NCBI GenBank assembly: GCA_011364925.1
Contig: RDOA01000003.1
Location: 72,924 to 136,923, forward strand
Direction of reading: 5' to 3'
Source of the DNA: Promethearchaeota archaeon
Lineage (GTDB): Archaea; Asgardarchaeota; Lokiarchaeia; Sigyniarchaeales; SOKP01
DNA length: 64,000 nt
A program made the position numbers and the translations under genes. Every line of letters starts with the position of its first letter. The stretch's first letter is position 1. The notes under the pieces were generated by a model. That model saw only the letters and a program-made list of their open reading frames with translations, had not been told where the DNA came from and searched no databases. Below are positions 8,193 through 60,888 of this stretch, piece after piece.

Positions 8193-8741
8193 TTGATTAA
8201 AATTAATAGAACAAAATTAGTACCAAAATTAATACTAGTACTCTTAGTATTTACCACTATAACTGGCTTTGCATTTACTTTTGTTGTAGCTAAAGGAGAT
8301 CAAAGGGCAAGTAGATTATCTTTTACAGCTACAGAAACTATGATATGGCCAGATGGTTGGGTTCCTATAGGTGATCCATGGGGTGATGGTAAGTTCATAC
8401 ATCAGATGTACTATAAAAAAGCAATTCTTGATGGCACAATTGAGGAAATAGGGGACTTTTCAGGGTATGATGAATTATATTTGCATGTTAAAATGGACCC
8501 AAATACCTTTGAGGTTATAAGCATTGGTAAAGTAACGATGTATATCTTTTGCGATAACGGACTAGAAGGAACTTTTTATGGATCTGTTATTGCGAAGGGT
8601 ACAGCTGGCTTTGGTCCTTTCGACGGTAAATATACGTTGCAAGGAGCTGGAGGATTTGAAGGAATGAAGCTTTTTGGTATAGTCTGGCTTGAAAGTGGTC
8701 TAGTAAACGGACTTTCTGGTACAATCTTAATCCCAAATTAA
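8193..8741 (+). CDS. secreted protein, unknown function (TTG start as drawn; the conserved ATG at 8159 is out of frame by one base across an A9 tract)
   Basis: 182-aa ORF. The N-terminus (M)IKINRTKLVPKLILVLLVFTTITGFAFTFVVAKG is signal-like and matches ELIKINRSKIV of ORF 4580. Confidence 0.65.
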   Translation: MIKINRTKLVPKLILVLLVFTTITGFAFTFVVAKGDQRASRLSFTATETMIWPDGWVPIGDPWGDGKFIHQMYYKKAILDGTIEEIGDFSGYDELYLHVKMDPNTFEVISIGKVTMYIFCDNGLEGTFYGSVIAKGTAGFGPFDGKYTLQGAGGFEGMKLFGIVWLESGLVNGLSGTILIPN

Positions 8742-8765
8742 AATCAAGAATAAAGGTGAATTCAA

Positions 8766-9854
8766 ATGCAAAAATCAATGCAAAGAAAACTATTGTTGAT
8801 GTTTCTCCTTGGTTCAATATTTTTCGTAATTCCTATTGCGAGCTCTAATGGAACTACATTCACTCCAAAGAAGGTTGCAGAACAATCTCTGTCCGGTGCT
8901 ACAACTCACGTTTATTTGGATGGAGATTACGCATTCATGGGAGTTGGAACATCCGGTCTGGCCATCGTTGATATTTCCCACCCGAAAAATCCAGGAACCC
9001 CGGTCTATAGAGACACCTCCGGCAGGGCGTATAACCTTTGGGTAGAGGGAGGCTACGCCTATGTGGCAGATTTTGATAAGGGTTTAGCTGTCATTGATGT
9101 TTCCGACCCAACAAACCCAGGACCTGCTACGCACGTACTAACAACCCAAGCTTGTGGTGATGTATGTGTTAGTGGAAATTACGCTTATGTGGACGGTGGT
9201 GGCTTAGCGGTTATCGACATTTCTGACCCAGTGCATCCGAACCTGGTCGTAACCAAACCTTTAACTGGAATTCCGTATGGTCTTTGCGTGAGTGGAGAAT
9301 ACGCATACATAGCAACTGCTGATACTGGTTTGGCGATCGTCAATATTTCCGATCCGACCAATCCAGGAACTCCCATTTACGAAGATACGACCGGAACTGC
9401 GTGGGATGTGTGTGTAAGTGGCGGTTACGCCTATGTAACAACCGGTAGTACCGGTTTAGCGATTATCGATGTTTCCGACCCGACAAATCCGGGAACGCCT
9501 GTTTATAGAGACACGACAGGAACTGCATATTTTATTTTTCTAAACGGAAGTTACGCCTATATAGCGGCTGATACTGGAGGCGTGGCGATCATTGATGTAT
9601 CCGACCCGACAAATCCGGGAACGCCGACCTATATAGATGTGGAAGGTCAAGCAATTGATGTGTATGTCAGGGGAGACTATGCTTATGTGGCGGATGAACA
9701 TTACGGCTTGAAAGTCTACGATCTTTTCTATACTACTCCAGAACCTGGTATTCCATTCGATAATTTCTACTTATTATTTATTGGGTTTAGCGTACTATGC
9801 TTAGTATTCATCGTTTCAAAAAAACGCAAAATTACTAGTGAATCTCAAAAATAA
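8766..9854 (+). CDS. LVIVD-repeat (beta-propeller) surface protein with C-terminal TM anchor
   Basis: About 8 repeats of G(L/V)A(I/V)(I/V)D(I/V)SDPTNPG...Y.DT.G.A..V.V.G.YAYV. There is an N-terminal signal peptide, and the C-terminus is PEPGIPFDNFYLLFIGFSVLCLVFIVSKKRK. An AGGTGA Shine-Dalgarno motif precedes the ATG. Confidence 0.85.
   Translation: MQKSMQRKLLLMFLLGSIFFVIPIASSNGTTFTPKKVAEQSLSGATTHVYLDGDYAFMGVGTSGLAIVDISHPKNPGTPVYRDTSGRAYNLWVEGGYAYVADFDKGLAVIDVSDPTNPGPATHVLTTQACGDVCVSGNYAYVDGGGLAVIDISDPVHPNLVVTKPLTGIPYGLCVSGEYAYIATADTGLAIVNISDPTNPGTPIYEDTTGTAWDVCVSGGYAYVTTGSTGLAIIDVSDPTNPGTPVYRDTTGTAYFIFLNGSYAYIAADTGGVAIIDVSDPTNPGTPTYIDVEGQAIDVYVRGDYAYVADEHYGLKVYDLFYTTPEPGIPFDNFYLLFIGFSVLCLVFIVSKKRKITSESQK
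8950..9720 (+). repeat. Coding tandem repeats (~120 bp period) encoding the LVIVD blades
   Basis: Recurrent DNA strings, e.g. GATGTTTCCGACCCGACAAATCCGGGAACGCC at ~9469 and ~9589, with diverged copies near 9097 and 9343. Confidence 0.8.
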
Positions 9855-48332: not shown

Positions 48333-51300
48333 TTAATCTTTAAGACCCTTTTCTTCTAATAAGGAGTCTAAATCTGTTTTTTCTTCTTCTTCTTCCTCAA
48401 CTTTCTCTTTTTTAGCTTTCTTCTTTTTAATTTTTTTAAGTTTTACTTCGCGAATTTCTTCTGTCTTTTCTTCTTGCACTTTGAGAGGTAATTCTCTCAC
48501 TGAAACGTATTTTCCTCTCCTTGGTCGTGGTTTAATTGGTTCCTCAAGAGGAGTTTCAATTTTCCTGATTGTTCTTCTTATATAAAGCAAAGAGATCGCC
48601 CACACTATTACGAAAATGCCAATCATTATCAAAGCGAAATAGGATATAAGCAACGAATCAAGTGGAGCATCGTAAATTGTAAAATCTACAGTTTTTTGGA
48701 ACACTACATTCTCCTGTGTTTGTTCGTTTCTTGCATCAATCGTCATGGAGAATGATATTTGGTCAACTGAAGATATATCTATTTTAACTATTATTGTTGT
48801 TATGTCATTTGGTTTGAATTCAGCTAATTTCATGAAGTTAATTTGCTCAATACTGTACGATAAAGTTGGAGAAATTTGAATAGTAATATTTTGGATTAAT
48901 ACTTTAAGTTCAGAATCACCAATATTACTTAATGTAATGCTAATCGCCGACGGAGTGTTTTTAAACAACTGATCCACATCCTTAGTGATCCTCAACGAGA
49001 TATTATTACGTGCTCGGAACATTGTTACAGTTATGTTTTGCGAATTGGCGAGGGTGTATTGATCTCCTTGCCAACTTAATCGAAATGTAAACTCATCCTC
49101 ATGAGGCAACAAGAGAGTGTCGATCTCAAAATTTGTTGTTCCATTTTCGTCAGTCATCTGAGTCGAAAAGTTTTGCCACGCATTGTTATCAAAATAAAGG
49201 AGCGAGACATTCTTAGCGGGGAATCTATCTCCAAATTCAGTGCTTAACACGGAACTTATGTTAAATTTTTGACCATATATCGGTGTGTGAGGGATAGTTG
49301 AAATCTCTGAAAATTTGCTATTAATTTTCAATGAGAATGAGCTAATGAAATCGTTATAACTGCTAACATAATTCTTATCGTAAATGTTAACGATGAATGT
49401 AGTTTTGTTAGGTAAGTATAAGCATTCGTCTCTTTTGAATGGCTTTAGGATCGATGCGCTTGTGACCTGTTTATCTTTTTTTAAGGCAATAAGGTATCCT
49501 TCAAATTCTGATTGAGTGCTATTTACGAGTAAGGATGTATCTGCACTTTTATAAGTTCCAACTTCATGACTTTTCCCGCCGTATTCAAAGTAAATAGTAA
49601 ATTTTGTCGTCACCCCTCCTTTTCTTACAGGTGCATTCACGCCCTTCCAAATTCCGTTTCCGAGAAGGTCTGGAATTGTGAGATCGACAAAGAAATCTTT
49701 CGTATCGTCCCCATTTGGATCGATACTTGGTTTTAACGTTTGAATTCCTGTAGTTTTTTCAGCAATTATCCATTTTTCGTTAGCAAAAGAAACCAATTGA
49801 ACTTTAACTTTGACCTTTAAATCAAGAAAATCGTGTAGATTATGAATTCTAGTGCCTATCCTTATGTCCTCATTCGGATTTAAGATGGTCTCGTTTTGCA
49901 CAAAAGTTTCAACGAGAATAGGGATTTCTTCATTGTTTACCTTATGAATAAATTCTTTATTAATGTTAGTTTTATTGATTGCGAAAAATCCGGGTCTATA
50001 TCGATCGTCTGTCACATTAACAGTGCCAATTAAAATTGAATAGCTTTCATAGACTCTATCAACTATTCCAACCAAAATATTGCGATCTAGATTTTCTTCG
50101 TAGAAACAATCTTGTAAATTAACATCGTAAGAATCAATATATAATTTAAGTTTTTGACAACCTATAGCAGATCCGTTCTCCCAAAAGAACCCTAAATAGT
50201 AGTTTCCGAGAAGAGGTGTAGCTTGATTAACATCTAAAATTGTAAGGTTGTTAAAGTCGTACTTAAGGTAATCGTCTACAATAACTCCCACTCCTGAATT
50301 CATTTCTGCTCCTGGAACTTTTGTTTTATTGTTTGGATAGAATAAAACTACATTAGCATTTCCATTGGTTGGGGGTTCCCCATCTGGTCTTTGAACATCG
50401 AGGCTAACAGAAATATTATCACCATACATAAATCCATTTGTTTCCCATAAAATGTCGTTATAGTTGATATAACTGTGCATATTGTAAATTAAATTACTGC
50501 TATTTAAAGCTAGAGAATATTGACCACTTATACCATTGATAATATAATAAGGAACAGCCGTATAATCAAATGATGGTCTGGAAACCAACGAACGTTCTCC
50601 TCCTGTGTTGTTTATTACTTCTCTATAAATATCATCGTAATTAGGATTTGTTAAATTATGTGCAGCATAATCGTTGGGGTACACAAACCAAACTTCTTGA
50701 AATGTCCACTCGTTCAAGTTCGGATCGGCAAGATTTAAAGTGAAATTTAGTTGCCATTCAGGAGTAGTATCATACGATACTTTATAATAGCTGTTCGCGT
50801 TTTCTATCCAATAAGCTCTTACCGTATATGATACATTAAATTCAAATCCTTTAATGACACTTTTATTCCAAGTGAGAACTATAGGAAAATTGTAAGAACC
50901 GTCATTGACTATCTCTGGTGTGAAGTGACTCGTCCATTGTCCTAAACCCCATGTTAAAGAGGAACTTACATCGTAAGGAGGAGCAGCAATAACGCTATTG
51001 TTTAATGGAATATTCTGAATCTTCAATGTATCTTCACTATCGTATGGATTTATAAAATCCGACGGCATGTAAGCCCTCGTCACGTTCAATTTAAACGCTG
51101 CTGCGTCTAGTTGTTCCGAGAGATATAGTGGCACTGAAGGGACTTGTTTTTTAGCTATGTTCCATGTAGATCCACTATCTTCGGATAAAAGTAATTTATG
51201 GTCTATTCGATTATCGGGATCACCATATGTCTGTCGGGGTAACGTGACCAAACTGTAGACCAAATCTGTCCGATTAGATTTGATCACGATAAAATAATTA

Positions 51301-52532
51301 TAAAGATTTAATTTTTGAGTGTTGCCAAGATTGAATCCAAAATATGTAAGTGAATCACCATGATATTCATTAAAACCAATTATTTTTGAATCAATAAGTT
51401 GAGAATTATTAGGTTTAAGATTGTTTGCAATTAAATAGGATTGAGTTCGAGGGATTGTAGAATTTGCTTTGTATAACGAGATATTTAATTCTGCGTTTGC
51501 AGCTTTGGCTAAATCTAAAGTTCTTATCCACGCGTAAAATCCATTTACTGTTGTACTTATTCCTTTTAGATCAAATTCCAACGCTAGTTGTTTGTTTTCG
51601 GTTATAGGTAAATCGAATCCGTATGTTGATACTAATTTAAATTCTCTTAAGGTGAGAATAAAATCACTAGAATCGTATTTCTGCACATAAAATTGAAGTT
51701 GGTTAACATCAGAACCATTAATGTAGTTTAAATTTTCGTTAATAATGCGATCTTCAAACTGTTGCGTGCCCAGACTGCTATTGATGAACAATCTGTCAGT
51801 TACATTGACCCACATAGAATCATAGATATTATACATCTTCAGAGTTAAAAACACATCATTGTTAAGACTACCAGAAAAGGTCGATATCAACCCTAATATC
51901 AAGGATCTATTAAAGTCTACATTAAACACTGGTCCGTCAAAAATCGTGTTAGTAAAGCTGGAATCGATTGTGAAATTCAATATTCCACCTGAAGAACTCA
52001 ACCTTATGTATGTAGATGGATTATTATCAACTAACTTATTGAAATTAATGGCATCTAAGTTTGTACCTGTATTGATGTTCATAAGCGATGCGTCTTCATC
52101 GTATGTAAACTTTATAAAATCATTTGCATATAGCGCACCCGTATTTTCAATAATATAATCGGTTGTAAAGTTATTTTGAAAAGTGAAATTGAAATTCCCA
52201 TATGAAAGGTATGTCGTGTCTGTAGTTGACATAGATGGAATGTTAAAAGAACCAACATTATTAGCATTAGAATTAGAGTTATTCAGCGCGTAAATTCTAA
52301 CATCTTGATTGGATCCCGAGCCGGTTATGTAGTAATCTGTTAAATATGGATCAGCAGCAGAAGATTCGGGATTCTCTTCACGATCGGACCAATATTGTTC
52401 TAAGGTATTGTTTGTATTGTGATTAAAATTACTGAAAATCTGAATATTGGCTAACAACATAAAAATAATAAACATACTTGCCACAATTATTCTTGTAACA
52501 TCATTTTTTCGGCGTTGAATCAAATAAACCAA
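48333..52532 (-). CDS. giant (1399 aa) single-pass surface protein with a K/E-rich cytoplasmic tail
   Basis: N-terminal hydrophobic anchor, then a ~1250-aa N/S/T/Y-rich body with many N-x-S/T sequons, then TM LLISYFALIMIGIFVIVWAISLLYI, then a ~95-aa tail ending KKIKKKKAKKEKVEEEEEEKTD... Confidence 0.8.
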   Translation of the reverse strand: MVYLIQRRKNDVTRIIVASMFIIFMLLANIQIFSNFNHNTNNTLEQYWSDREENPESSAADPYLTDYYITGSGSNQDVRIYALNNSNSNANNVGSFNIPSMSTTDTTYLSYGNFNFTFQNNFTTDYIIENTGALYANDFIKFTYDEDASLMNINTGTNLDAINFNKLVDNNPSTYIRLSSSGGILNFTIDSSFTNTIFDGPVFNVDFNRSLILGLISTFSGSLNNDVFLTLKMYNIYDSMWVNVTDRLFINSSLGTQQFEDRIINENLNYINGSDVNQLQFYVQKYDSSDFILTLREFKLVSTYGFDLPITENKQLALEFDLKGISTTVNGFYAWIRTLDLAKAANAELNISLYKANSTIPRTQSYLIANNLKPNNSQLIDSKIIGFNEYHGDSLTYFGFNLGNTQKLNLYNYFIVIKSNRTDLVYSLVTLPRQTYGDPDNRIDHKLLLSEDSGSTWNIAKKQVPSVPLYLSEQLDAAAFKLNVTRAYMPSDFINPYDSEDTLKIQNIPLNNSVIAAPPYDVSSSLTWGLGQWTSHFTPEIVNDGSYNFPIVLTWNKSVIKGFEFNVSYTVRAYWIENANSYYKVSYDTTPEWQLNFTLNLADPNLNEWTFQEVWFVYPNDYAAHNLTNPNYDDIYREVINNTGGERSLVSRPSFDYTAVPYYIINGISGQYSLALNSSNLIYNMHSYINYNDILWETNGFMYGDNISVSLDVQRPDGEPPTNGNANVVLFYPNNKTKVPGAEMNSGVGVIVDDYLKYDFNNLTILDVNQATPLLGNYYLGFFWENGSAIGCQKLKLYIDSYDVNLQDCFYEENLDRNILVGIVDRVYESYSILIGTVNVTDDRYRPGFFAINKTNINKEFIHKVNNEEIPILVETFVQNETILNPNEDIRIGTRIHNLHDFLDLKVKVKVQLVSFANEKWIIAEKTTGIQTLKPSIDPNGDDTKDFFVDLTIPDLLGNGIWKGVNAPVRKGGVTTKFTIYFEYGGKSHEVGTYKSADTSLLVNSTQSEFEGYLIALKKDKQVTSASILKPFKRDECLYLPNKTTFIVNIYDKNYVSSYNDFISSFSLKINSKFSEISTIPHTPIYGQKFNISSVLSTEFGDRFPAKNVSLLYFDNNAWQNFSTQMTDENGTTNFEIDTLLLPHEDEFTFRLSWQGDQYTLANSQNITVTMFRARNNISLRITKDVDQLFKNTPSAISITLSNIGDSELKVLIQNITIQISPTLSYSIEQINFMKLAEFKPNDITTIIVKIDISSVDQISFSMTIDARNEQTQENVVFQKTVDFTIYDAPLDSLLISYFALIMIGIFVIVWAISLLYIRRTIRKIETPLEEPIKPRPRRGKYVSVRELPLKVQEEKTEEIREVKLKKIKKKKAKKEKVEEEEEEKTDLDSLLEEKGLKD

Positions 52533-54147: not shown

Positions 54148-55335
54148 GTGCAAGATTTAGTAAAGATTGAGGATTGTGTTATTCTTATAGATTCTTCAAG
54201 ATCTATGGTTAGGAAAGATTTTAAACCAAGTCGATTAGCAATTGCCTTAGAAACTGCAAAAAAATTTATTCACGAGAAATTCCTAATAGATCCTAAGGAT
54301 CGGATCGCGATTCTTTCGTTTGGAGCAAATGTTACTAAATTATGCCCATTCAGTTTCGACGAAGAAAAACTCTTGAATGCATTAAATCGAATTCAGGTAT
54401 CTGGGAGCGGTACGCTTAATGAAGGTCTCGCGTTTTCAGTTCAATATTTAGTAGGAGAAATGCGTAAACTTGGAGGTAAGACAAATAGAATTTTTGTCAT
54501 CTCCGATAATAAAGTAGAATATACTGATAAGATAAGAAAAATCATCAATATCGCTAATGGATTAGGCATTTACATTGACGCATGTCAATTAGGAAAGACC
54601 GAGGACCATTCTGAAAGTATTTTAAAGAAAATTGCCAAAACTACAGGCGGAAATTTTGGTTTTTTCAATAATTCGAAAGCGATGTTAAATGCTGGAGCTT
54701 TATACGCATCAAAAAAAGAACTAAAAGAATCCATTGACTACTTTGGTCCAGAACAAAAGAGTGAGAATGCTCCACTTATCAGCGAGATCGCATTACAATT
54801 GAGAAGACCAAATGTTCTGGATATTCGTTTATTGATGAGTAGTAAAGAACGAGGTCAGGAAAAGTGTCAGATCTGTCACTCCACGAAATCTCAAATAACT
54901 GGCGCTGATTTTTACAGTGAGGGCCGATATTGCCCCTCATGTGAAAGACCTATGCATTTATCTTGCGTTGCTATGTGGGCTAAGAAAACTGAATACAAGG
55001 AAAATGTGTTCAGATGCCCGTTCTGCTTCTTCTTATTAGAACTCCCTCCTAGTGCGGTAAAATTGGTTGAAGAAAAAGTCCCAACGGAAGAACCAAAAAT
55101 TAAATTAATCGATGAGAGTGGAATTAATATGGTCTATGTCAATCAAGTTCCAGAAGTGGAAATTGATGAAATTAACGCGTCTTGTACTTATTGTCACAGT
55201 ATATTCTTAGGTGATTATAAGGTCTATCAATGCGAGAAATGTAAAGCATATTACCACGAACCATGTCTAAAAAAGATGTATAATGAAATCAGTGCGTGTA
55301 GAAATTGTGGAGCACAGATAATTATTAATGATTAA
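54148..55335 (+). CDS. vWA-domain protein with two C-terminal C4HC3 (PHD/RING-variant-like) zinc fingers
   Basis: MIDAS motif DSSRSM in VILIDSSRSMVRKDFKPSRL. Finger 1 is CQIC-x18-CPSC-x4-H-x2-C-x16-CPFC, and finger 2 is CTYC-x12-CEKC-x4-H-x2-C-x10-CRNC. Confidence 0.75.
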   Translation: MQDLVKIEDCVILIDSSRSMVRKDFKPSRLAIALETAKKFIHEKFLIDPKDRIAILSFGANVTKLCPFSFDEEKLLNALNRIQVSGSGTLNEGLAFSVQYLVGEMRKLGGKTNRIFVISDNKVEYTDKIRKIINIANGLGIYIDACQLGKTEDHSESILKKIAKTTGGNFGFFNNSKAMLNAGALYASKKELKESIDYFGPEQKSENAPLISEIALQLRRPNVLDIRLLMSSKERGQEKCQICHSTKSQITGADFYSEGRYCPSCERPMHLSCVAMWAKKTEYKENVFRCPFCFFLLELPPSAVKLVEEKVPTEEPKIKLIDESGINMVYVNQVPEVEIDEINASCTYCHSIFLGDYKVYQCEKCKAYYHEPCLKKMYNEISACRNCGAQIIIND

Positions 55336-55517: not shown

Positions 55518-57566
55518 ATGACGAAGAATGAAAAAAATAAATGGGTAATTACTTCAGCATGGCCCTATGTCAACGCTATACCACATTTAGGCAATATGAT
55601 AGGAAGTGTGTTATCTTCTGATGTATTTGCTAGGTTTTGTAGACTAATTGGAGACGAAGTTGTTTTTGTTTCCGGCTCTGACTCTCATGGAACTCCGGTG
55701 GCTGTAGCTGCAAAGCAACAAAATGTACCTGTAAAAGATTTAGCGTTCAAAAATCACGTTATTATTAAAGAATTATTTGAAAAATGGCAAATTTCTTACG
55801 ATAACTATACTATTACACATACTCCAACTCATATCGATTTTGTGCAGAAATTCTATTTAGATGTTCAGAAAAACGGTTATATATTTGAAAAAGAGATCGA
55901 ATCGTTATATTGTGAACCAGATAATCTTTATTTACCCGATAGATTCGTAGAAGGAACATGTCCTCACTGTGGTGATGAGGGAGCAAGGGGGGATCAATGT
56001 GACACGTGTCAAAGACTTCTTACTCCCTTAGAATTGATTAATCCACGTTGTGCGATTTGTGGTACTACTCCTTCGATAAAGAATACGAAGCATTGGTATC
56101 TGGATTTACCAAAACTCCAAAATCAATTAAAAGTTCTAATTGAAAAAAATGAGATCATTCCTTCTAATGCTAAACAAATGCTGCTAAATAGTATTGCTGA
56201 AGGATTACCTGCGAGAGCAATTACTCGAGATTTGGAATGGGGAATACCAGCCAAATTTAAAGGAGCAGAGGGAAAAACAATTTATGTATGGTTCGAAGCA
56301 GTACTCGGATATATTTCTGCTTGTCAGGAGTGGGCCGAAAAGATTATAAACAACCCAAAAAAATTTGATTATTTTTGGAAAGATCAAAAAACTAAGACAG
56401 TTTTCTTTATAGGAAAAGATAACATTATATTTCATTTAATCGTGTTTCCTGGGTTACTGTTAGGCTATAATGCAGATAAAATTGAAGGAGACAAATTTGT
56501 TCTCCCTTATAATGTATCATCGACAGAATGGTTAATGTATGAAAATCAAAAATTCTCAAAATCAAGGGGAATCGGAATCTGGATCGACGAAGCGTTAAAG
56601 ATAGCACCTTTAGATTATTGGCGATTTACTTTAGTATATAATCGACCAGAAACTAGCGATACTAGTTTTTTATGGTCAGAATTTGAGAATAACATTAAAA
56701 CATTAAACGATAACATTGGAAATTTTATTCACAGAACATTAACTTTTATCGACAAGCAATTTAAAGGAATCGTTCCTAAAAAACTAGAGTACGATGAGAC
56801 AGATAAAAAGTTCGTTGATCTTATAAATAATATCGGCTTTGAAATTGGAGAAAGTATAAGAAATTTTAAGTTAAGAAAAGCTATAAGAGACATCGTTAAT
56901 TTTGGAAAGGAAGGGAACGTTTATCTTAATAGTAAAGCTCCCTGGCATTTGATTAAAAAGGATAAGAGTGCTGCTGGTCACGTATTCAATATTTGTACTC
57001 AAGCAGTTTACGCGTTTGGAGTACTCTTAAGTCCATTTATTCCGGGAACTGCTGAAAAAATATTGTCGTATTTGAATCATCCTAATTTGAGCGAATTAAG
57101 ATGGGATTCAATTAACGAAAATTCTGTAAAAGAGGGTCAAAAAATAAAACACCCAGAACCCCTTTTTCAAAAACTTGATATTAATGAGATAAAAATTAAA
57201 CTTCAAAAAATAAGGGAAGGAACGGAACATATTGGTGGTAAAGAATTGGTTTCTTACGAGGATTTTAAAAAGTTAGACATAAGAGTTGCTCTTATTGAGA
57301 ACGTAGAAAAGGTACCTAAAGCAGATAAGTTGTATAAACTATCTATTGATCTTGGAGATGAGAAGCGGATATTAGTCGCAGGGTTAGCCGAACATTATAA
57401 AGAAGAAGATTTAAAAGGTAAAAAGATCGTAATCCTCGCTAATCTGGAACCAAGGAAATTGAGAGGGATTCTAAGCCAAGGGATGCTGCTAGCAGCAGTT
57501 GAAGGCGATACTGTATCGGTATTAACACCTGAGAAAGATATTCCATCAGGAGCAAAAGTAGAATAG
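55518..57566 (+). CDS. metG: methionyl-tRNA synthetase with C-terminal tRNA-binding (EMAPII/Trbp111-like) domain
   Basis: PHLGNMIG (HIGH-type), KFSKSRG (KMSKS), zinc knuckles CPHCG...CDTCQ...CAICG, and C-terminal DIRVALIENVEKVPKADKLYKLSIDLG. An AAGGAGGT Shine-Dalgarno motif lies upstream. Confidence 0.9.
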   Translation: MTKNEKNKWVITSAWPYVNAIPHLGNMIGSVLSSDVFARFCRLIGDEVVFVSGSDSHGTPVAVAAKQQNVPVKDLAFKNHVIIKELFEKWQISYDNYTITHTPTHIDFVQKFYLDVQKNGYIFEKEIESLYCEPDNLYLPDRFVEGTCPHCGDEGARGDQCDTCQRLLTPLELINPRCAICGTTPSIKNTKHWYLDLPKLQNQLKVLIEKNEIIPSNAKQMLLNSIAEGLPARAITRDLEWGIPAKFKGAEGKTIYVWFEAVLGYISACQEWAEKIINNPKKFDYFWKDQKTKTVFFIGKDNIIFHLIVFPGLLLGYNADKIEGDKFVLPYNVSSTEWLMYENQKFSKSRGIGIWIDEALKIAPLDYWRFTLVYNRPETSDTSFLWSEFENNIKTLNDNIGNFIHRTLTFIDKQFKGIVPKKLEYDETDKKFVDLINNIGFEIGESIRNFKLRKAIRDIVNFGKEGNVYLNSKAPWHLIKKDKSAAGHVFNICTQAVYAFGVLLSPFIPGTAEKILSYLNHPNLSELRWDSINENSVKEGQKIKHPEPLFQKLDINEIKIKLQKIREGTEHIGGKELVSYEDFKKLDIRVALIENVEKVPKADKLYKLSIDLGDEKRILVAGLAEHYKEEDLKGKKIVILANLEPRKLRGILSQGMLLAAVEGDTVSVLTPEKDIPSGAKVE

Positions 57567-57567
57567 A

Positions 57568-58800
57568 TTATAATTTAAGGGAAAATATTGGATTCAATCG
57601 AGCGATAATCTCACCAAGGTCCAATTGAAGCGTTTTGAGGATCACATCTCTTCCTCTGTACTCGAATTGCAATTCTTTGACATTCCGGACGATTTTTAAT
57701 TTATTCCTGTCTTTCATTAATTCACAAGCGAAGTATCTTTGATCTTTGTATTCTAGTACTTTTTGCACTTGACTAATGTCCGGTAACCTATATCCCCCTC
57801 CATGAGGCAACAAATTAGCGTTTAATAATAGGTCTAACATTTCAAGTCGGTTGGCTCTTTCCAAAAAGTCGTTATTTTTGAGCGTTGTTTCTGAAAAATT
57901 ATTTTTCCCTCTAAACAAGTAACTTGATAGATCCGCTCGGAGTGTTGTCGGAAAAATATTAGATGAATCACTTTCAGTACAGTTGCTCCCTATATACATG
58001 TTGTTGTAATCCTTTAGGAATTGGTGCGCTGAATTACAAATAACTGTAAATTTGGAGCTGAATAAATTCATAGCAACTATTTCTCTTTTTACATTTGAAA
58101 AGATTAATGCTTTTTTATTGAACTCGAGATATTCTTTTGCGTCTGAATCTAACAAAACAAACTGGGTTCCAAATTCAGTCGTCTCTTTAATTGCTCGGCT
58201 CATTAGAGATTTGGAACCATCGATATATAGTCCTATACCATACTTATCGTCGCGAAATTCTGGAGCAGAACCATGGATCATGAACATATACGGAGGAAAA
58301 TCCAGATTAGAAAGATTTTTCGTTTCGTAACAGTTGATAAAGTGATTAGAAATTCCATAATCCCAATTTATCAATATATCTCCACTATATAGTTCTGTAC
58401 TCTTTACACTGTCTATTTTTTTAATGATCTCGTAGGGATCTGGTAGTTCTTCTAACCCGCCCACTAAAATACCGCAGCAATTTGGTTTAATATTTAAGAA
58501 AACTAATTTATCTTTCCCAGAACCCCAATTTAATCTCCCACCATAACCAAGACCAGAGTTCCATCGAAAATTATTTTTTGAAATCGTTTCATCTGGGGAT
58601 GAGATGAAGGTAGCTTTTGGTTCAAATCCATATTTCTCTTGAATCAAGTGGAATTGCGCCAAACCGTATTTCATGTTCGCTCTGCATAATTTAGAAGCTC
58701 CATCGTTTAATCCCGTTGAGAAAATGAAATCATTTGCTCTTTGAAGTAAATCTGTCTTAGATAGTTCAGATACTTTATTGGATAACTCAAATGAACCCAT
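57568..58800 (-). CDS. highly divergent RtcB-like protein (tentative)
   Basis: Colinear degenerate matches to RtcB signatures as I recall them: NIKPNCCG (cf. DIGCGM), ISNHF (GNHF), MIHGSAPE (HSGSRG), NSAHQ (HHN), IFPTTLRADLSSYLFRG (IPGSMGAKSFIVRG), LPHGGGY (HGAGR). 410 aa. Confidence 0.45.
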   Translation of the reverse strand: MGSFELSNKVSELSKTDLLQRANDFIFSTGLNDGASKLCRANMKYGLAQFHLIQEKYGFEPKATFISSPDETISKNNFRWNSGLGYGGRLNWGSGKDKLVFLNIKPNCCGILVGGLEELPDPYEIIKKIDSVKSTELYSGDILINWDYGISNHFINCYETKNLSNLDFPPYMFMIHGSAPEFRDDKYGIGLYIDGSKSLMSRAIKETTEFGTQFVLLDSDAKEYLEFNKKALIFSNVKREIVAMNLFSSKFTVICNSAHQFLKDYNNMYIGSNCTESDSSNIFPTTLRADLSSYLFRGKNNFSETTLKNNDFLERANRLEMLDLLLNANLLPHGGGYRLPDISQVQKVLEYKDQRYFACELMKDRNKLKIVRNVKELQFEYRGRDVILKTLQLDLGEIIARLNPIFSLKL

Positions 58801-58887
58801 TCTACTTAATAATTAGATATTATTATATTTATATATACGATAGTATGTTTGTAAGTTAGGAAAAAGTAATCTCAATTTAGCATAATT

Positions 58888-59526
58888 ATGAGCGATCCAG
58901 ACAACACAATTTTATTCGACTCGGTGAAAGGAATACAATTAGAGGGAGAGTTTGAAGGGTCCATAATTACCCGATGCAAAGACGATAACAATTCTATTAT
59001 TTTTTCGGACAATCTTAAAATCTCTAACTCAGAAGGTATTTTTATCGTCAACGGATTCAGAGTCGGCTTTGAATTAGATTATAATAAAAAGTCTGCTTTT
59101 TCTCGAAAAATTGAAGCGCAATGGTACGAGGATTTTGAATCCATTGAATATTCAATACTCATTTCAGAAGATATAATGCAAATCTATGGAGAAGGCCAGT
59201 TTTCAGATGCTTACCCATATACTTTAAACAAGCTTAATACAGCTACCCTTTATTTTGATGATTATGGACATAAAATTAACCATTTGGACTTCTTCAAGGG
59301 AGAAATGCTTAAGAATCCCATAGCTCTTGTGGGAAATGGCGTTATAGTTGCAGACAGAGTTGTTATAGATGAAAGAATCGATCCTGTATTTTACGATTGT
59401 TTAATCGTTGGACGAGATGAAAATGAAAATCTTTCGGTGTCATTTGAACCATATATGAATGTGAAAAAATCTTTAACACATGTTAAATACATCATTATCT
59501 TAGGAATAGAAGAATTGAAACTTTAG
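58888..59526 (+). CDS. hypothetical protein
   Basis: 212-aa ORF with normal composition and no recognisable motif. Confidence 0.5.
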   Translation: MSDPDNTILFDSVKGIQLEGEFEGSIITRCKDDNNSIIFSDNLKISNSEGIFIVNGFRVGFELDYNKKSAFSRKIEAQWYEDFESIEYSILISEDIMQIYGEGQFSDAYPYTLNKLNTATLYFDDYGHKINHLDFFKGEMLKNPIALVGNGVIVADRVVIDERIDPVFYDCLIVGRDENENLSVSFEPYMNVKKSLTHVKYIIILGIEELKL

Positions 59527-59652: not shown

Positions 59653-60888
59653 ATGATACTATACGAAAATAATAGCGCTAGATTGCTTAATATAATAAAG
59701 TGGGGAAATAATCCTTTCAAAAAGTTTGTAAGTACCAGTGAAATTAAAGAAGAATTAGATTTTGTAAAATCACGGGAGGGTCTCATTAATAGAATTAAGA
59801 CAATCGTGAAAGAAGACCGCAATTTTATCCTTCCCGTTATCGGGGAAGTAGGTTCAGGAAAGACTCATCTCTATTGGGCTCTAAAAAATAGTCTTTATTA
59901 TTATAATACGTTCTATATCTCTCTAGAATCCGTATACAAAAAGTTTTTTTATAATATTTACTCTGAATTCATAGAAAAACTTGAAATAGCGCCCTTGAAA
60001 TTCGTAGTGAACCAATTATGCGAAAATTGGGGTGCTTTAGAGAGGAAGTATGGATTTTTTCAAGTAGTTGACATTGAAAAAATTAAAAAGACGGCAATCA
60101 ATCAGTTATCTGCTAAATACAGCGAAATCGAACCAGAAATTCTAAAGGACGCAATCACGGGGATTACAACCCATCAATTAGACCCATATAAAAAAATTGA
60201 GGCTGAAAGATGGTTATTAGGCAAATTATTGGACGCAAAAGAATTGTCCATTCTAAATATTACTCACGATCTTCATAAGGGTAAAAATGCTTACGTTCTT
60301 TTAAGGCTCTTTATTGAAAATTCCAAGCTAGGAACGATTCTTTTTATCGACGATTTTGAAAAAATTGTTGGAATCTCGAATCCACAAGATGATTTAGTCG
60401 AAGAAGTGTTCGATCCTAGTTGGCTCTACGGAGCTGAAAGGTCTCCTAACGATATCGCTTCTGAAAAGATTTTTTCAAAAATAACCCAACTACAAAATAT
60501 TGATGGATTACGCGTAATTATTACTTTAAAATCAATAGACTCACTAGAACAAATCAAAAAAAAATATCAAGATATTGATTCCGAATTGTTACCACCAATA
60601 AAAGAACCCATTTTTCTTGAAAATTTTAGCGAAGAGGATATCTTCGAGTTATATAAGAGTACGATGAGGAATTTCTTCAACAATATTGAATGTAATGAAT
60701 TTACAAAAGAGTTCGAGAACAACTACTTTCCATTAAATTCAACGATATTGAAAAATGTCTTTAGACAGGCTCACGGAAATCCTAGGGTCATTATAAAGAC
60801 ATTAATTAGGATTTTCAACGAGATCATTGAAGATGAGGAAGATCTTGAGACAATTTTAAAAAATTATGAAAATTTAACAACCAATTAA
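59653..60888 (+). CDS. P-loop NTPase (archaeal-ATPase/AAA+-like)
   Basis: Walker A GEVGSGKTHL and Walker B ILFIDDFE. The N-terminal FV....E...L.F context resembles the archaeal ATPase family. Confidence 0.65.
   Translation: MILYENNSARLLNIIKWGNNPFKKFVSTSEIKEELDFVKSREGLINRIKTIVKEDRNFILPVIGEVGSGKTHLYWALKNSLYYYNTFYISLESVYKKFFYNIYSEFIEKLEIAPLKFVVNQLCENWGALERKYGFFQVVDIEKIKKTAINQLSAKYSEIEPEILKDAITGITTHQLDPYKKIEAERWLLGKLLDAKELSILNITHDLHKGKNAYVLLRLFIENSKLGTILFIDDFEKIVGISNPQDDLVEEVFDPSWLYGAERSPNDIASEKIFSKITQLQNIDGLRVIITLKSIDSLEQIKKKYQDIDSELLPPIKEPIFLENFSEEDIFELYKSTMRNFFNNIECNEFTKEFENNYFPLNSTILKNVFRQAHGNPRVIIKTLIRIFNEIIEDEEDLETILKNYENLTTN

Follow-up and report, generated by a model that had tools for sequence, protein, structure and literature searches.

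A gene in the 64-kb window (the whole stretch of DNA that was analysed, from a Lokiarchaeota archaeon) encodes a 410-aa protein that we consider, on balance, to be a catalytically competent, deeply divergent enzyme of the RtcB superfamily with RtcB-type chemistry, probably present in addition to the canonical tRNA-splicing ligase. To our knowledge, RtcB is the only type of ligase that joins a 3'-phosphate to a 5'-OH via a histidine-GMP intermediate; neither tRNA splicing nor the unfolded-protein response can do without it, and it also has a part in RNA repair. The gene and its neighbours are as follows:

57568..58800, minus strand: CDS of the divergent protein with a predicted RtcB fold, 410 aa, from the ORF listing, with an ATG start and the stop codon included.
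55518..57566, plus strand: metG, methionyl-tRNA synthetase (PF09334 tRNA-synt_1g E 5e-143, Anticodon_3 and C-terminal tRNA_bind).
58801..58887, no strand: AT-rich divergent intergenic region of 87 bp, read directly, with TATA-like runs such as 'tatttatatatacg'.
58888..59526, plus strand: p212, a clade-specific conserved protein of 212 aa and the divergent neighbour of the RtcB-like gene.
59653..60888, plus strand: 411-aa P-loop ATPase downstream of p212, with a weak PF01637 ATPase_2 match (E 1e-4, below cut-off) and a weak Hda/AAA match.

The ORF listing agreed exactly with the initial annotation, which had placed a 410-aa minus-strand ORF at 57568-58800. Its statement that the gene ends 1 nt from the metG stop in convergent orientation was likewise borne out by the sequence and by Pfam (PF09334): exactly one base (57567) lies between the two stops, and the junction reads ...GTAGAA TAG a TTA...

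Single-sequence searches of the protein (Pfam; phmmer against the PDB) returned nothing, and in Pfam there was no match even at E <= 10, PF01139 included. NCBIfam gave two RtcB models only, both far below cut-off: NF007153 (14.4 bits, cut-off 407) and TIGR03073 ('release_rtcB'; 12.3 bits, cut-off 271.8, E 0.061). The protein is below the threshold of all three curated RtcB families (PF01139, NF007153, TIGR03073). When a shallow profile (A1, 71-87% identity) was searched against PDB sequences, the best match was an unrelated C-S lyase (E 0.074). With a family profile built from 71 diverse homologues (23-75% identity), RtcB chains came out on top (E 0.03), and RtcB was the only Pfam family matched by more than one of the members (5/71, best PF01139 E 0.0071).

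A profile search had been suggested in the initial annotation, and with hhalign it found RtcB: the family profile gave 94% and E 1.5e-7 against the single E. coli RtcB sequence, and 97.3%, E 2.2e-11 and a score of 88.6 over 218 columns against a 9-sequence RtcB profile. The alignment was collinear, running from residues 147-409 of the protein against 162-407 of E. coli RtcB. As controls, the reversed profile scored 17.9 (E 0.2) and block-shuffled profiles scored 30-38 (E 3e-4 to 4e-3); the motif pattern is therefore beyond chance, as the profile E of 2.2e-11 stands against 0.2 to 3e-4 in the controls. The N-terminal 146 residues alone, which include the Cys motif, remained below significance (hhalign E 0.13).

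The AlphaFold model of the protein had a pLDDT of 96.1 and a pTM of 0.93. A Foldseek comparison with the PDB, also suggested in the initial annotation, gave RtcB ligases as the sole significant matches. These were 14 matches from four organisms (Pyrococcus, human, zebrafish and Thermus), with E between 2e-9 and 1e-6 and a probability of 1.00, and comprised all those at E <= 1e-3; the next match was at E 0.26. On this predicted structure, the protein belongs to the RtcB fold. Its TM of 0.39-0.48 and rmsd of about 10 A against the RtcB structures (Foldseek) indicate that large parts of the fold have been remodelled. Taken together, profile and model support the protein as a very distant relative of RtcB.

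All six degenerate RtcB-like motif strings that had been read in the protein were located at verified coordinates, and hhalign and HMMER gave the same motif-to-motif pairings with RtcB as had been proposed. They are given here with a C-terminal element:

58471..58485, minus strand: PNCCG (P106-G110), proposed counterpart of RtcB D-x-G-C-G-M (local hhalign, conservation).
58339..58350, minus strand: SNHF (S151-F154), paired with RtcB GNHF (HMMER and hhalign).
58258..58278, minus strand: IHGSAPE (I175-E181), paired with RtcB H-S/T-G-S-R-G (HMMER and hhalign).
58021..58032, minus strand: SAHQ (S257-Q260), paired with RtcB C-H-H-N (hhalign).
57907..57957, minus strand: IFPTTLRADLSSYLFRG (I282-G298), paired with the RtcB IPGSMGAKSFIVRG strand-loop-strand (hhalign).
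57790..57807, minus strand: PHGGGY (P332-Y337), paired with RtcB S-H-G-A-G-R (hhalign).
57574..57660, minus strand: C-terminal element from Y381-R382-G383 to K409, paired with RtcB Y-K ... K (HMMER and hhalign).

The roles of the RtcB manganese ligands, the alpha-phosphate-binding Asn and the GMP-acceptor His were taken from published work (PMC10630183, PMC10944509), in which the Mn(A) ligands of P. horikoshii RtcB (PhoRtcB) are Cys98, His234 and His329 (PMC10630183). Their proposed counterparts C109, H176 and H259 are all kept in the present family, with H176 exact, H259 off by one and C109 in a non-significant alignment. H176 (71 of 71 members; E181 of the same motif in 58/71) falls on PhoRtcB H234 with HMMER and on E. 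coli H185 with hhalign, and would be the counterpart of the Mn(A) ligand His234. H259, also invariant (71/71), is put by hhalign on E. coli H280, which directly precedes the ligand H281, beside a 14-residue deletion, and is probably equivalent to the Mn(A) ligand His329. For PNCCG, the local hhalign alignment sets N107, C109 and G110 against E. coli D75, C78 and G79 via a one-residue deletion and reaches E 0.13 when taken alone; C109 is conserved in 67/71, G110 in 68/71 and N107 in 64/71, with Asp in two members. Cys109 is proposed as the metal-bridging Cys common with RtcB, and Asn107 would stand at the position of the Asp ligand.

The Mn(B) set (Asp95, Cys98, His203) is incomplete, with H153 exact and the Asp position taken by Asn107, one residue nearer the Cys. 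SNHF is aligned with N202-H203-F204 of PhoRtcB (HMMER) and with N167-H168-F169 of E. coli RtcB (hhalign), and is nearly invariant (H153 71/71, N152 69/71, F154 70/71). His153 is the likely counterpart of the Mn(B) ligand PhoRtcB His203, and Asn152 that of the alpha-phosphate-binding Asn. Conserved acidic residues that are candidate stand-ins for the Asp ligand are D147 (63/71), D70 (66/71) and D33 (65/71). In human RtcB, the D119A variant retains weak guanylylation and its ligation is abolished (PMC10944509).

PHGGGY is aligned with E. coli H337-G-A-G-R341 (hhalign), with Tyr337 at the place of the Arg. Its conservation is high (H333 71/71, P332 70/71, G334 68/71, G336 69/71, Y337 54/71), and His333 is the candidate nucleotidyl-accepting His, corresponding to His404 in P. 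horikoshii and His428 in human RtcB. IFPTTLRADLSSYLFRG was aligned with E. coli 'IIPGSMGAKSFIVRG' (hhalign); P284 is kept in 64/71 and position 294 (Y294) is aromatic in 62/71. The C-terminal 'lpfeYRg...rpvlslk' was matched to PhoRtcB 443-480 'APGAYKN...RPIGVAK' by HMMER and to E. coli 'IPMAYKD...VVCVK' by hhalign, position 381 (Y381) being aromatic in 65/71, R382 present in 63/71 and position 409 (K409) basic in 52/71. The roles that we take Tyr451, Lys480 and Arg408 of RtcB to have carry no weight as evidence here. Overall, the initial annotation read the active site well: the putative metal-binding Cys and His residues and the candidate nucleotidyl-accepting His are retained, the four His being invariant and, like Cys109, aligned with those of RtcB, and the first Asp and the final Arg are lost, with Asn107 and Tyr337 in their places.

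Because the Cys/three-His centre and the acceptor His are kept, we infer RtcB-type chemistry. In the proposed mechanism, the centre would bind a divalent metal (Mn2+-type) and an NTP would nucleotidylate His333; the NMP would then be passed from His333 to a phosphate-terminated substrate, and attack by a hydroxyl on the phosphate thus activated would yield a phosphodiester. By homology, the likeliest substrate would be an RNA end carrying a 3'-phosphate or a 2',3'-cyclic phosphate, to be ligated to a 5'-OH. The Asp-to-Asn and Arg-to-Tyr changes and the remodelled N-terminal third suggest nucleotide or substrate handling unlike that of canonical RtcB. A survey based on PF01139 recorded RtcB in all near-complete archaeal genomes examined, in a study that covered Asgard archaea (PMC12918454), and PF01139 does not match the 410-aa protein, so that the latter is probably an extra enzyme beside the canonical tRNA-splicing ligase.

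Some observations count against this explanation, namely the Asn that most members (64/71) carry at the position of the Asp ligand, the Tyr in place of the HGAGR Arg, the E of 0.13 for the N-terminal third, the low TM and high rmsd against RtcB structures, the abolished ligation of the human D119A variant, and the lack of RNA-repair partners near the gene in the lineages inspected.

Conservation of the locus was assessed in a comparison set of 81 Loki-type loci, for which the 80 closest were drawn from a scan of species-representative genomes. The RtcB-like gene is present as one intact, full-length, syntenic copy per locus in all 81. It is convergent with metG within 60 nt in 73/79 loci, with the stops 0-1 nt apart in 62, and among the related loci inspected outside the Loki-type clade none has metG beside it. 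Its divergent adjacency with p212 is kept in 71/73 loci, and the 87 bp between the two probably hold the promoter region for both. The P-loop ATPase is full-length in 61/81 loci, on the strand of p212 and mostly at a distance of 620-900 nt from the RtcB-like ORF. Across 51 complete loci the RtcB-like protein had a median identity of 72%, as against 75% in MetRS, and four other neighbours had 53-62%; in Loki-type Asgard archaea the gene behaves like a housekeeping gene, present once and slow to evolve.

p212 had no match in Pfam, NCBIfam, PADLOC or PHROGs. Its homologues form 438 clusters, and the source names among the 120 listed are all Asgard archaea. The best Foldseek matches of its model (pLDDT 72.9) were all Sm/LSm proteins (E 4e-3 to 4e-2, about 70 residues), and p212 is possibly a small Sm-like beta-barrel. 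That it might be a cryptic archease was considered and rejected, archease being absent among these best matches.

No archease was found among the window ORFs scanned or in the Pfam annotations of the related loci inspected, and no RtcA, RtcR, PrfH or other RNA-repair partner was found near the gene in the window and these loci. Neither the window nor the fetched loci, whose roughly 1.4 Mb cover only a small part of the genomes concerned, showed a canonical RtcB, and the whole 64-kb window contained no tRNA genes or Rfam RNAs. There was likewise no evidence of an association with mobile elements or defence: the RtcB-like protein and its neighbours had no match in PADLOC or PHROGs, and no copies were found in phages, plasmids or IMG/VR.

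At 50% identity the wider family falls into 252 clusters. Relatives occur in 337 species-representative genomes, and the distribution over many archaea and some bacteria (Streptomyces, myxobacteria) is patchy and HGT-like; the most divergent subclade is in Streptomyces. The family is modelled by no curated database and falls outside every curated RtcB model, and the literature, Pfam and NCBIfam yielded no account of the divergent clade or of its motif changes, partners and occurrence in Asgard archaea. One member, P0272 of Methanonatronarchaeum thermophilum, is labelled 'RNA-splicing ligase RtcB family' in GenBank, which shows that at least one annotator had already seen the RtcB relationship. 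P0272 is 77% identical to P0184, itself about 30% identical to the window protein, and it falls in the cassette-bearing subclade described below, outside the Loki-type one.

In that subclade, the RtcB-like gene is the first of a same-strand cassette, followed by an ATP-grasp ligase and then an AstE/AspA amidohydrolase, at four loci, two from archaea (L085, L101) and two from bacteria (L102, L103), with partner proteins 34-57% identical between loci. In one lineage, represented by two independent assemblies, an APH-type kinase (phosphotransferase) is fused to the RtcB-like protein. A Hanks-type kinase lies directly downstream of the gene in a single myxobacterium, and a tandem-HD phosphohydrolase downstream of it in a single soil bacterium. 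A family-wide operon partner was rejected, as L084, L104 and L105 have no related gene downstream in common (a Hanks kinase, a tandem HD protein and a membrane protein). The recurrent partners (ATP-grasp with AstE/AspA; the APH fusion) are not classic RNA-repair contexts, an observation that also counts against the preferred explanation.

These contexts bear on a second reading, possible though rather unlikely, in which the RtcB scaffold has been re-purposed to join or activate a phosphorylated small molecule, peptide or protein, and the Loki-type protein is a housekeeping metabolic or protein-modifying enzyme. We know of no RtcB relative with a non-nucleic-acid substrate. Candidate substrates, put forward tentatively, would be a kinase-made phosphomonoester or an intermediate handled by the ATP-grasp amide ligase and the M14-type amidohydrolase. 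Besides the cassette in its four loci, the APH fusion and the Hanks-type kinase and tandem-HD contexts, such a reading is favoured by the position of the most divergent subclade in Streptomyces, by the alteration of two RtcB phosphate/nucleotide-contacting residues, and by the finding of RNA-repair partners in none of the loci inspected. However, ATP-grasp, AstE/AspA, APH, kinase and HD partners were found within 6-10 kb in neither the window nor the 81 Loki-type, Heimdall or Altiarchaeota loci. The Loki-type and cassette clades are separate in a rough tree, so that the context may not transfer, and the kinase and HD contexts are one observation each. The Loki-type neighbours, MetRS and possibly an Sm-like protein, are weak hints towards RNA, and ATP-grasp enzymes may be RNA ligases themselves (PMC11494293).

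Taken further, the same evidence might point to a distinct enzyme class on the RtcB scaffold, whose Cys/His centre and histidine-NMP would activate a phosphomonoester on a substrate other than broken RNA. Speculative candidates for it would be a phospho-metabolite made by a kinase, a phosphopeptide, or a conjugate of RNA with an amino acid or peptide. The ATP-grasp amide ligase and M14-type amidohydrolase could, at a similarly low level of confidence, be co-workers in some lineages, with the protein a housekeeping enzyme in Lokiarchaeia.

It is improbable that the protein is instead the sole RNA-splicing ligase, an orthologue that has diverged fast, taken the place of canonical RtcB, and now seals tRNA exon halves and makes rRNA precursors circular. 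The single syntenic copy in 81 Loki-type loci, the relatives in 337 species-representative genomes, the MetRS-like conservation with intact catalytic residues, and canonical RtcB having gone unseen in the window and the small 1.4-Mb sample would fit this, but PF01139-type RtcB is present in every near-complete archaeal genome examined (PMC12918454), and the present family is undetectable by PF01139. The family is also patchy in archaea and present in Streptomyces and myxobacteria, a distribution that resembles an accessory or paralogous family rather than an orthologous replacement. We know of no tRNA-splicing endonuclease pathway in these bacteria.

The initial annotation had proposed a neofunctionalised or an inactivated RtcB paralog; the kinship with RtcB stood (hhalign E 2.2e-11, Foldseek) and inactivation did not, since the four putative active-site His are invariant. 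That the protein is a dead pseudoenzyme serving in structure or RNA binding, or that the gene is decaying, is very improbable. Either would account for the lost Mn(B) Asp ligand and HGAGR Arg and for the curated models giving no match above cut-off, but none of the 71 members lacks any of the four His, and 67-70 of them retain the Cys, the NHF Asn and the PHGGG loop, down to 23% identity, a degree of constraint not expected at a dead site; copies are intact and full-length in all loci. Most members carry the same replacement residues (Asn 64/71, Tyr 54/71), a sign of an active site that has changed and not been lost, and one intact syntenic copy with MetRS-like slow evolution argues in the same direction. 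Least probable of all is a role in phage defence or inter-genomic conflict, as an RNA-repair module of the PrfH-RtcB2 or Rtc-operon kind: canonical RtcB paralogues are often found in such systems (PMC6514570) and the wider family has a patchy, HGT-like spread over archaea and bacteria, but the conflict-system role raised in the initial annotation is opposed by empty defence-library searches (PADLOC, PHROGs), no phage, plasmid or IMG/VR copies, a chromosomal context fixed among housekeeping genes in 81 Loki-type genomes, slow evolution in contrast to the fast turnover usual in defence genes, and the absence of PrfH, RtcA, RtcR and toxin neighbours.

With the divergent RtcB-type enzyme as the preferred reading, a large family keeps the catalytic core, alters two phosphate/metal-contacting residues and is without a curated model; PF01139-based surveys miss it, and it deserves a model of its own. 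Asgard archaea are relatives of the eukaryotic ancestor, and conservation as tight as that of an aminoacyl-tRNA synthetase in their Loki-type members implies an important function. The ATP-grasp and AstE/AspA cassette and the APH-kinase fusion provide concrete handles on the substrate, and members in cultured organisms (Methanonatronarchaeum, Streptomyces) make the family experimentally tractable. If the distinct class outlined above were real, RtcB-type chemistry would reach beyond RNA ligation and Asgard archaea would hold an unrecognised core enzyme.

Among known systems, the RtcB-archease tRNA-splicing module differs in its archease partner, often operonic, which was not found at the RtcB-like loci inspected. 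PrfH-associated RtcB2 and further bacterial RtcB paralogues are reported to have specialised on substrates other than tRNA introns, with 16S rRNA repair as the instance (PMC13166195, PMC9223846). The RtcB2 model, TIGR03073, is one of the two NCBIfam models matching the 410-aa protein, far below cut-off, and the locus has no PrfH neighbour. The RtcB homologue TTHA1785 of Thermus thermophilus (2epg, 'hypothetical protein' to its depositors) led the Foldseek matches in target-normalised TM (0.42), had the smallest rmsd (8.4 A), and was also matched by the family profile (E 0.26), but at 13% identity it is no nearer than other RtcB structures. From canonical RtcB (PF01139; PH1602 1uc2/4dwq, human RTCB 7p3b/8odp, E. 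coli RtcB), the protein is set apart by an identity of about 10-13%, an Asn equivalent to Asp95, a Tyr replacing the HGAGR Arg, a length some 70 residues below that of archaeal RtcB (410 vs 481 aa), the 14-residue deletion before His259, about 23 unaligned residues inserted after the FRG strand and ahead of PHGGGY (hhalign), an N-terminal third unalignable by sequence, and no archease nearby. It shares with canonical RtcB the same overall predicted fold, collinear profile homology over its C-terminal two thirds, putative equivalents of Cys98, His203, His234, His329 and the GMP-accepting His404, and also the NHF Asn, the conserved Arg (R239) that follows the long helix, and a C-terminal pair of one aromatic and one basic residue.

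The RtcB-like ORF, its strand and the length of its product (410 aa) in the ORF listing matched the initial annotation exactly. The six motif strings proposed there were all found, and their window coordinates were checked by translation. The single nucleotide described between the stops of this gene and the convergent metG was also read directly in the DNA (...GTA GAA TAG a TTA...). The genes concerned are:

55518..57566, + strand: metG, convergent neighbour, methionyl-tRNA synthetase (MetRS; PF09334, E 5e-143, with anticodon-binding domain and C-terminal tRNA-binding domain)
57568..58800, - strand: RtcB-like ORF, ATG start, 410 aa
58888-59526, + strand: p212, 212-aa product, divergently adjoining the RtcB-like gene

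The window is AT-rich (GC ~30–39 %), and a protein neighbouring the RtcB-like ORF is 100 % identical to EAX91_02335 from a ‘Candidatus Lokiarchaeota archaeon’ MAG. Neither tRNA genes (ARAGORN) nor Rfam families at gathering score were detected in the whole 64 kb. A very large ORF (48333-52532, - strand, 1399 aa) gave no Pfam match at E <= 1e-3; a gene of ~1380 aa is similarly placed in the related locus L001.

Searched as a single sequence, the RtcB-like protein had no Pfam match at E <= 10 and nothing meaningful among PDB sequences. NCBIfam returned just two matches. Each was to an RtcB model, scoring 14 and 12 bits where the cut-offs are 407 and 272, which is a lead and not a test. A word-indexed search retrieved 681 homologues, the best 120 of which were ‘hypothetical proteins’ of Asgard MAGs with 71–96 % identity. 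A seed profile was then run exhaustively with HMMER against 1.84 billion representative proteins and matched 252 clusters at E <= 1e-3, a large number of them over the full length; 71 members (23–75 % identical to the window protein) were drawn from these for a diverse alignment. Using this alignment as a profile, the best matches among PDB sequences were the RtcB chains 1uc2, 4dwr and 7lfq (E ~0.03), with SNHF placed on N202-H203-F204 and H176 on H234 of P. horikoshii RtcB (PhoRtcB). RtcB was also the sole Pfam family matched by more than one of the 71 members (5/71).

Profile-profile comparison (hhalign) of the alignment with the single E. coli RtcB gave 94 % probability (E 1.5e-7). Against a small profile of E. 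coli RtcB and eight diverse IMG/VR RtcBs, this rose to 97.3 % (E 2.2e-11), residues 147–409 being aligned to E. coli 162–407. When the RtcB profile was reversed, the score fell from 88.6 to 17.9 (E 0.2), and when it was shuffled in 10-column blocks short motif matches remained (E 3e-4 to 4e-3); the signal therefore reflects collinear homology and not composition, which supports the RtcB reading of the initial annotation. By fold and homology the protein belongs to the RtcB superfamily, and it has a conserved Cys/His constellation and a conserved His in a glycine-rich loop. It scores below the thresholds of the curated RtcB family and lacks one defining ligand, the Asp.

In PhoRtcB, Mn(A) is bound by Cys98, His234 and His329, Mn(B) by Asp95, Cys98 and His203, and GMP is attached at His404 (PMC10630183). 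In the human enzyme the corresponding residues are C122/H259/H353, D119/C122/H227 and H428, with N226 binding the alpha-phosphate; alanine mutants of all five human metal ligands lack ligation, and D119A retains weak guanylylation (PMC10944509). Among the 71 aligned members, H153, H176, H259 and H333 of the window protein were each invariant (71/71), followed by F154 and P332 (70/71), N152 and G336 (69/71), G110, R239 and G334 (68/71) and C109 (67/71). H153 and H176 were paired with PhoRtcB His203 and His234, and H333 with the GMP-accepting His. H259 was placed on the first His of the E. coli C-H-H-N, one residue ahead of the ligand and beside a 14-residue deletion, and is probably equivalent to the metal-ligand His. 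Aligned by itself, the N-terminal third, which holds the Cys motif, showed no significant similarity to RtcB (E 0.13); the best local match, also not significant, set N107/C109/G110 on E. coli D75/C78/G79 with a one-residue deletion.

The position of the Asp ligand was Asn in 64/71 members and Asp in 2, and the Arg of H-G-A-G-R was replaced by Tyr in 54/71. This agrees with the initial annotation, in which the metal-binding Cys and His and the nucleotidyl-accepting His appeared retained and the first Asp and final Arg lost, H259 being a presumed ligand and H333 a candidate nucleotide acceptor. Since the substitutions are themselves conserved, the alignment points to an active site that was altered, not decayed. 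The C-terminal Y381-R382 ... K409, which aligns with the Y-K ... K of RtcB, is likewise constrained.

Outside the Loki-type clade (the window protein and its Promethearchaeota-type relatives), the family extends to distant members such as P0184 (~30 % identical to the window protein). Around P0184 were found Methanonatronarchaeum and Methanohalarchaeum, archaeal MAGs labelled Altiarchaeota, Methanofastidiosia, Hydrothermarchaeales, Thermoproteota, Heimdall- and Hodarchaeales, and bacterial MAGs labelled Actinobacteria, Bipolaricaulia and Polyangiaceae; the most divergent subclade of the family came from cultured Streptomyces strains. In a rough neighbour-joining tree that carries no support values, the Loki-type clade grouped with unlabelled and bacterial members, apart from the Heimdall/Hod and Methanonatronarchaeia clades.

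Gene neighbourhoods varied by lineage. The sole recurrent set was a same-strand cassette of the RtcB-like gene, then a 428–448-aa ATP-grasp enzyme, then a 306–311-aa AstE/AspA (M14-like) amidohydrolase, found in two archaeal loci (Methanonatronarchaeia, Methanohalarchaeum) and on two bacterial contigs:

L085:7001-10402, same-strand: RtcB-like, ATP-grasp, AstE/AspA (archaeal)
L101:6001-9417, same-strand: RtcB-like, ATP-grasp, AstE/AspA (archaeal)
L102:6001-9637, same-strand: RtcB-like, ATP-grasp, AstE/AspA (bacterial)
L103:6001-9469, same-strand: RtcB-like, ATP-grasp, AstE/AspA (bacterial)

The partners were 34–57 % identical across loci, and all four ATP-grasp copies had multiple ATP-grasp/TTL matches (TTL/ATPgrasp_ST-like). 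No description of this association was found in the literature. On the L085 contig (Methanonatronarchaeia), genes with haloarchaeal pleomorphic virus envelope and VP3 domains (PF26255 Viral_env_HRPV, PF26064 VP3; L085:1-1825) suggest an integrated provirus ~5 kb from the cassette. In two independent metagenome assemblies, an APH-type phosphotransferase (PF01636, E 3e-20) was fused N-terminally to the RtcB-like domain (residues ~338–735; P0141, 743 aa, and P0465, 748 aa). Single cases of a Hanks-type protein kinase (8239-9687 of the myxobacterial locus L084) and of a tandem-HD protein were seen immediately downstream of the RtcB-like gene. Neither the window nor the Loki-type loci had any of these partners near the RtcB-like gene, and archease, RtcA, RtcR and PrfH were absent from all loci inspected (window neighbourhood and related loci).

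Following RtcB enzymology (PMC10630183, PMC10944509), the protein would bind divalent metal and take up an NMP on His333 for transfer to a terminal phosphate, after which attack by a hydroxyl would form a phosphodiester. By homology, the default substrate would be RNA with 3'-P or 2',3'-cP and 5'-OH ends. Use of a nucleotide or substrate other than that of canonical RtcB is less likely in our view but a serious alternative, given the Asp to Asn and Arg to Tyr changes, the remodelled N-terminal third and partners in other lineages that are not of RNA-repair type.

Relatives were present in 337 genomes of a species-representative scan, the best 80 loci all being from Promethearchaeota-type MAGs (65–84 % identity to the window protein), and each of 81 Loki-type loci had one intact copy. 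Of these near-identical syntenic loci, L003–L082 bear NCBI labels as diverse as Promethearchaeota, Hermodarchaeota, Hodarchaeota, Thorarchaeota and Odinarchaeota, and L011 is even labelled ‘Nanopelagicaceae bacterium’, so the phylum-level labels of these MAG records are unreliable. Median identity to the proteins of the window, taken over the 51 loci in which all six genes were full length, was 72 % for the RtcB-like protein and 75 % for MetRS; the VWA protein reached 62 %, the M20 peptidase 57 %, p212 56 % and the ATPase 53 %. The RtcB-like protein is thus slow to evolve, at about the pace of an essential translation enzyme. Such slow evolution poorly fits a fast-turnover defence gene, and the conflict-system role first considered is further weakened by PADLOC and PHROGs, which had no matches for the protein and its neighbours, and by phage, plasmid and IMG/VR collections, which held no copies. 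An inactivated protein, also offered initially, is rejected by the slow evolution together with the invariant catalytic residues.

metG was convergent and at most 60 nt away in 73/79 Loki-type loci. The tail-to-tail junction (57564-57570 in the window) was kept at 0–1 nt between stops in 62 of the 79 despite protein divergence to ~70 % identity; as it leaves no space for separate terminators, each transcript's 3' end must fall within or very near the other gene. Convergence does not imply co-transcription, the arrangement is absent outside the Loki-type clade, and no functional link between the two genes is read from it. Directly upstream of metG, and syntenic across Loki-type loci, is a 395-aa protein (54148-55335, + strand) whose von Willebrand A / Ssl1-like domain at the N-terminus and Cys-rich zinc fingers, PHD-like and C1-like, at the C-terminus are eukaryote-type signature domains.

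The p212 gene was divergent and adjoining in 71/73 Loki-type loci. It had no match in Pfam, NCBIfam, PADLOC or PHROGs, and its homologues (438 clusters) were confined to Asgard archaea/the Loki-type clade among the matches listed. The best PDB matches of its AlphaFold model (pLDDT 72.9, moderate confidence) were Sm/LSm proteins throughout, with E-values of 4e-3 to 4e-2 across ~70 residues, a weak hint that p212 may be Sm-like; identity as an archease was rejected on these matches.

A PF01139-based survey, part of a study in which Asgard archaea were included, detected canonical RtcB in every near-complete archaeal genome it covered (PMC12918454). As the present family is invisible to PF01139, we infer that the RtcB-like protein exists in addition to a canonical enzyme and is not the only splicing ligase. 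For the clade itself, neither a publication nor a curated model was found. We regard it as a large, deeply divergent and unmodelled branch of the RtcB superfamily, in which the active site is altered and the genomic associations are new. The family could widen the range of RtcB chemistry; it is of considerable size, under tight conservation in Asgard archaea and amenable to experiment. We infer the function of the protein, and its RtcB affinity was not entirely unrecognised before: the record of P0272 (M. thermophilum) already carries the name ‘RNA-splicing ligase RtcB family’, so an annotator had noticed the relationship. With one record so named, and with the fold and probable chemistry of RtcB, the clade is not categorically new.
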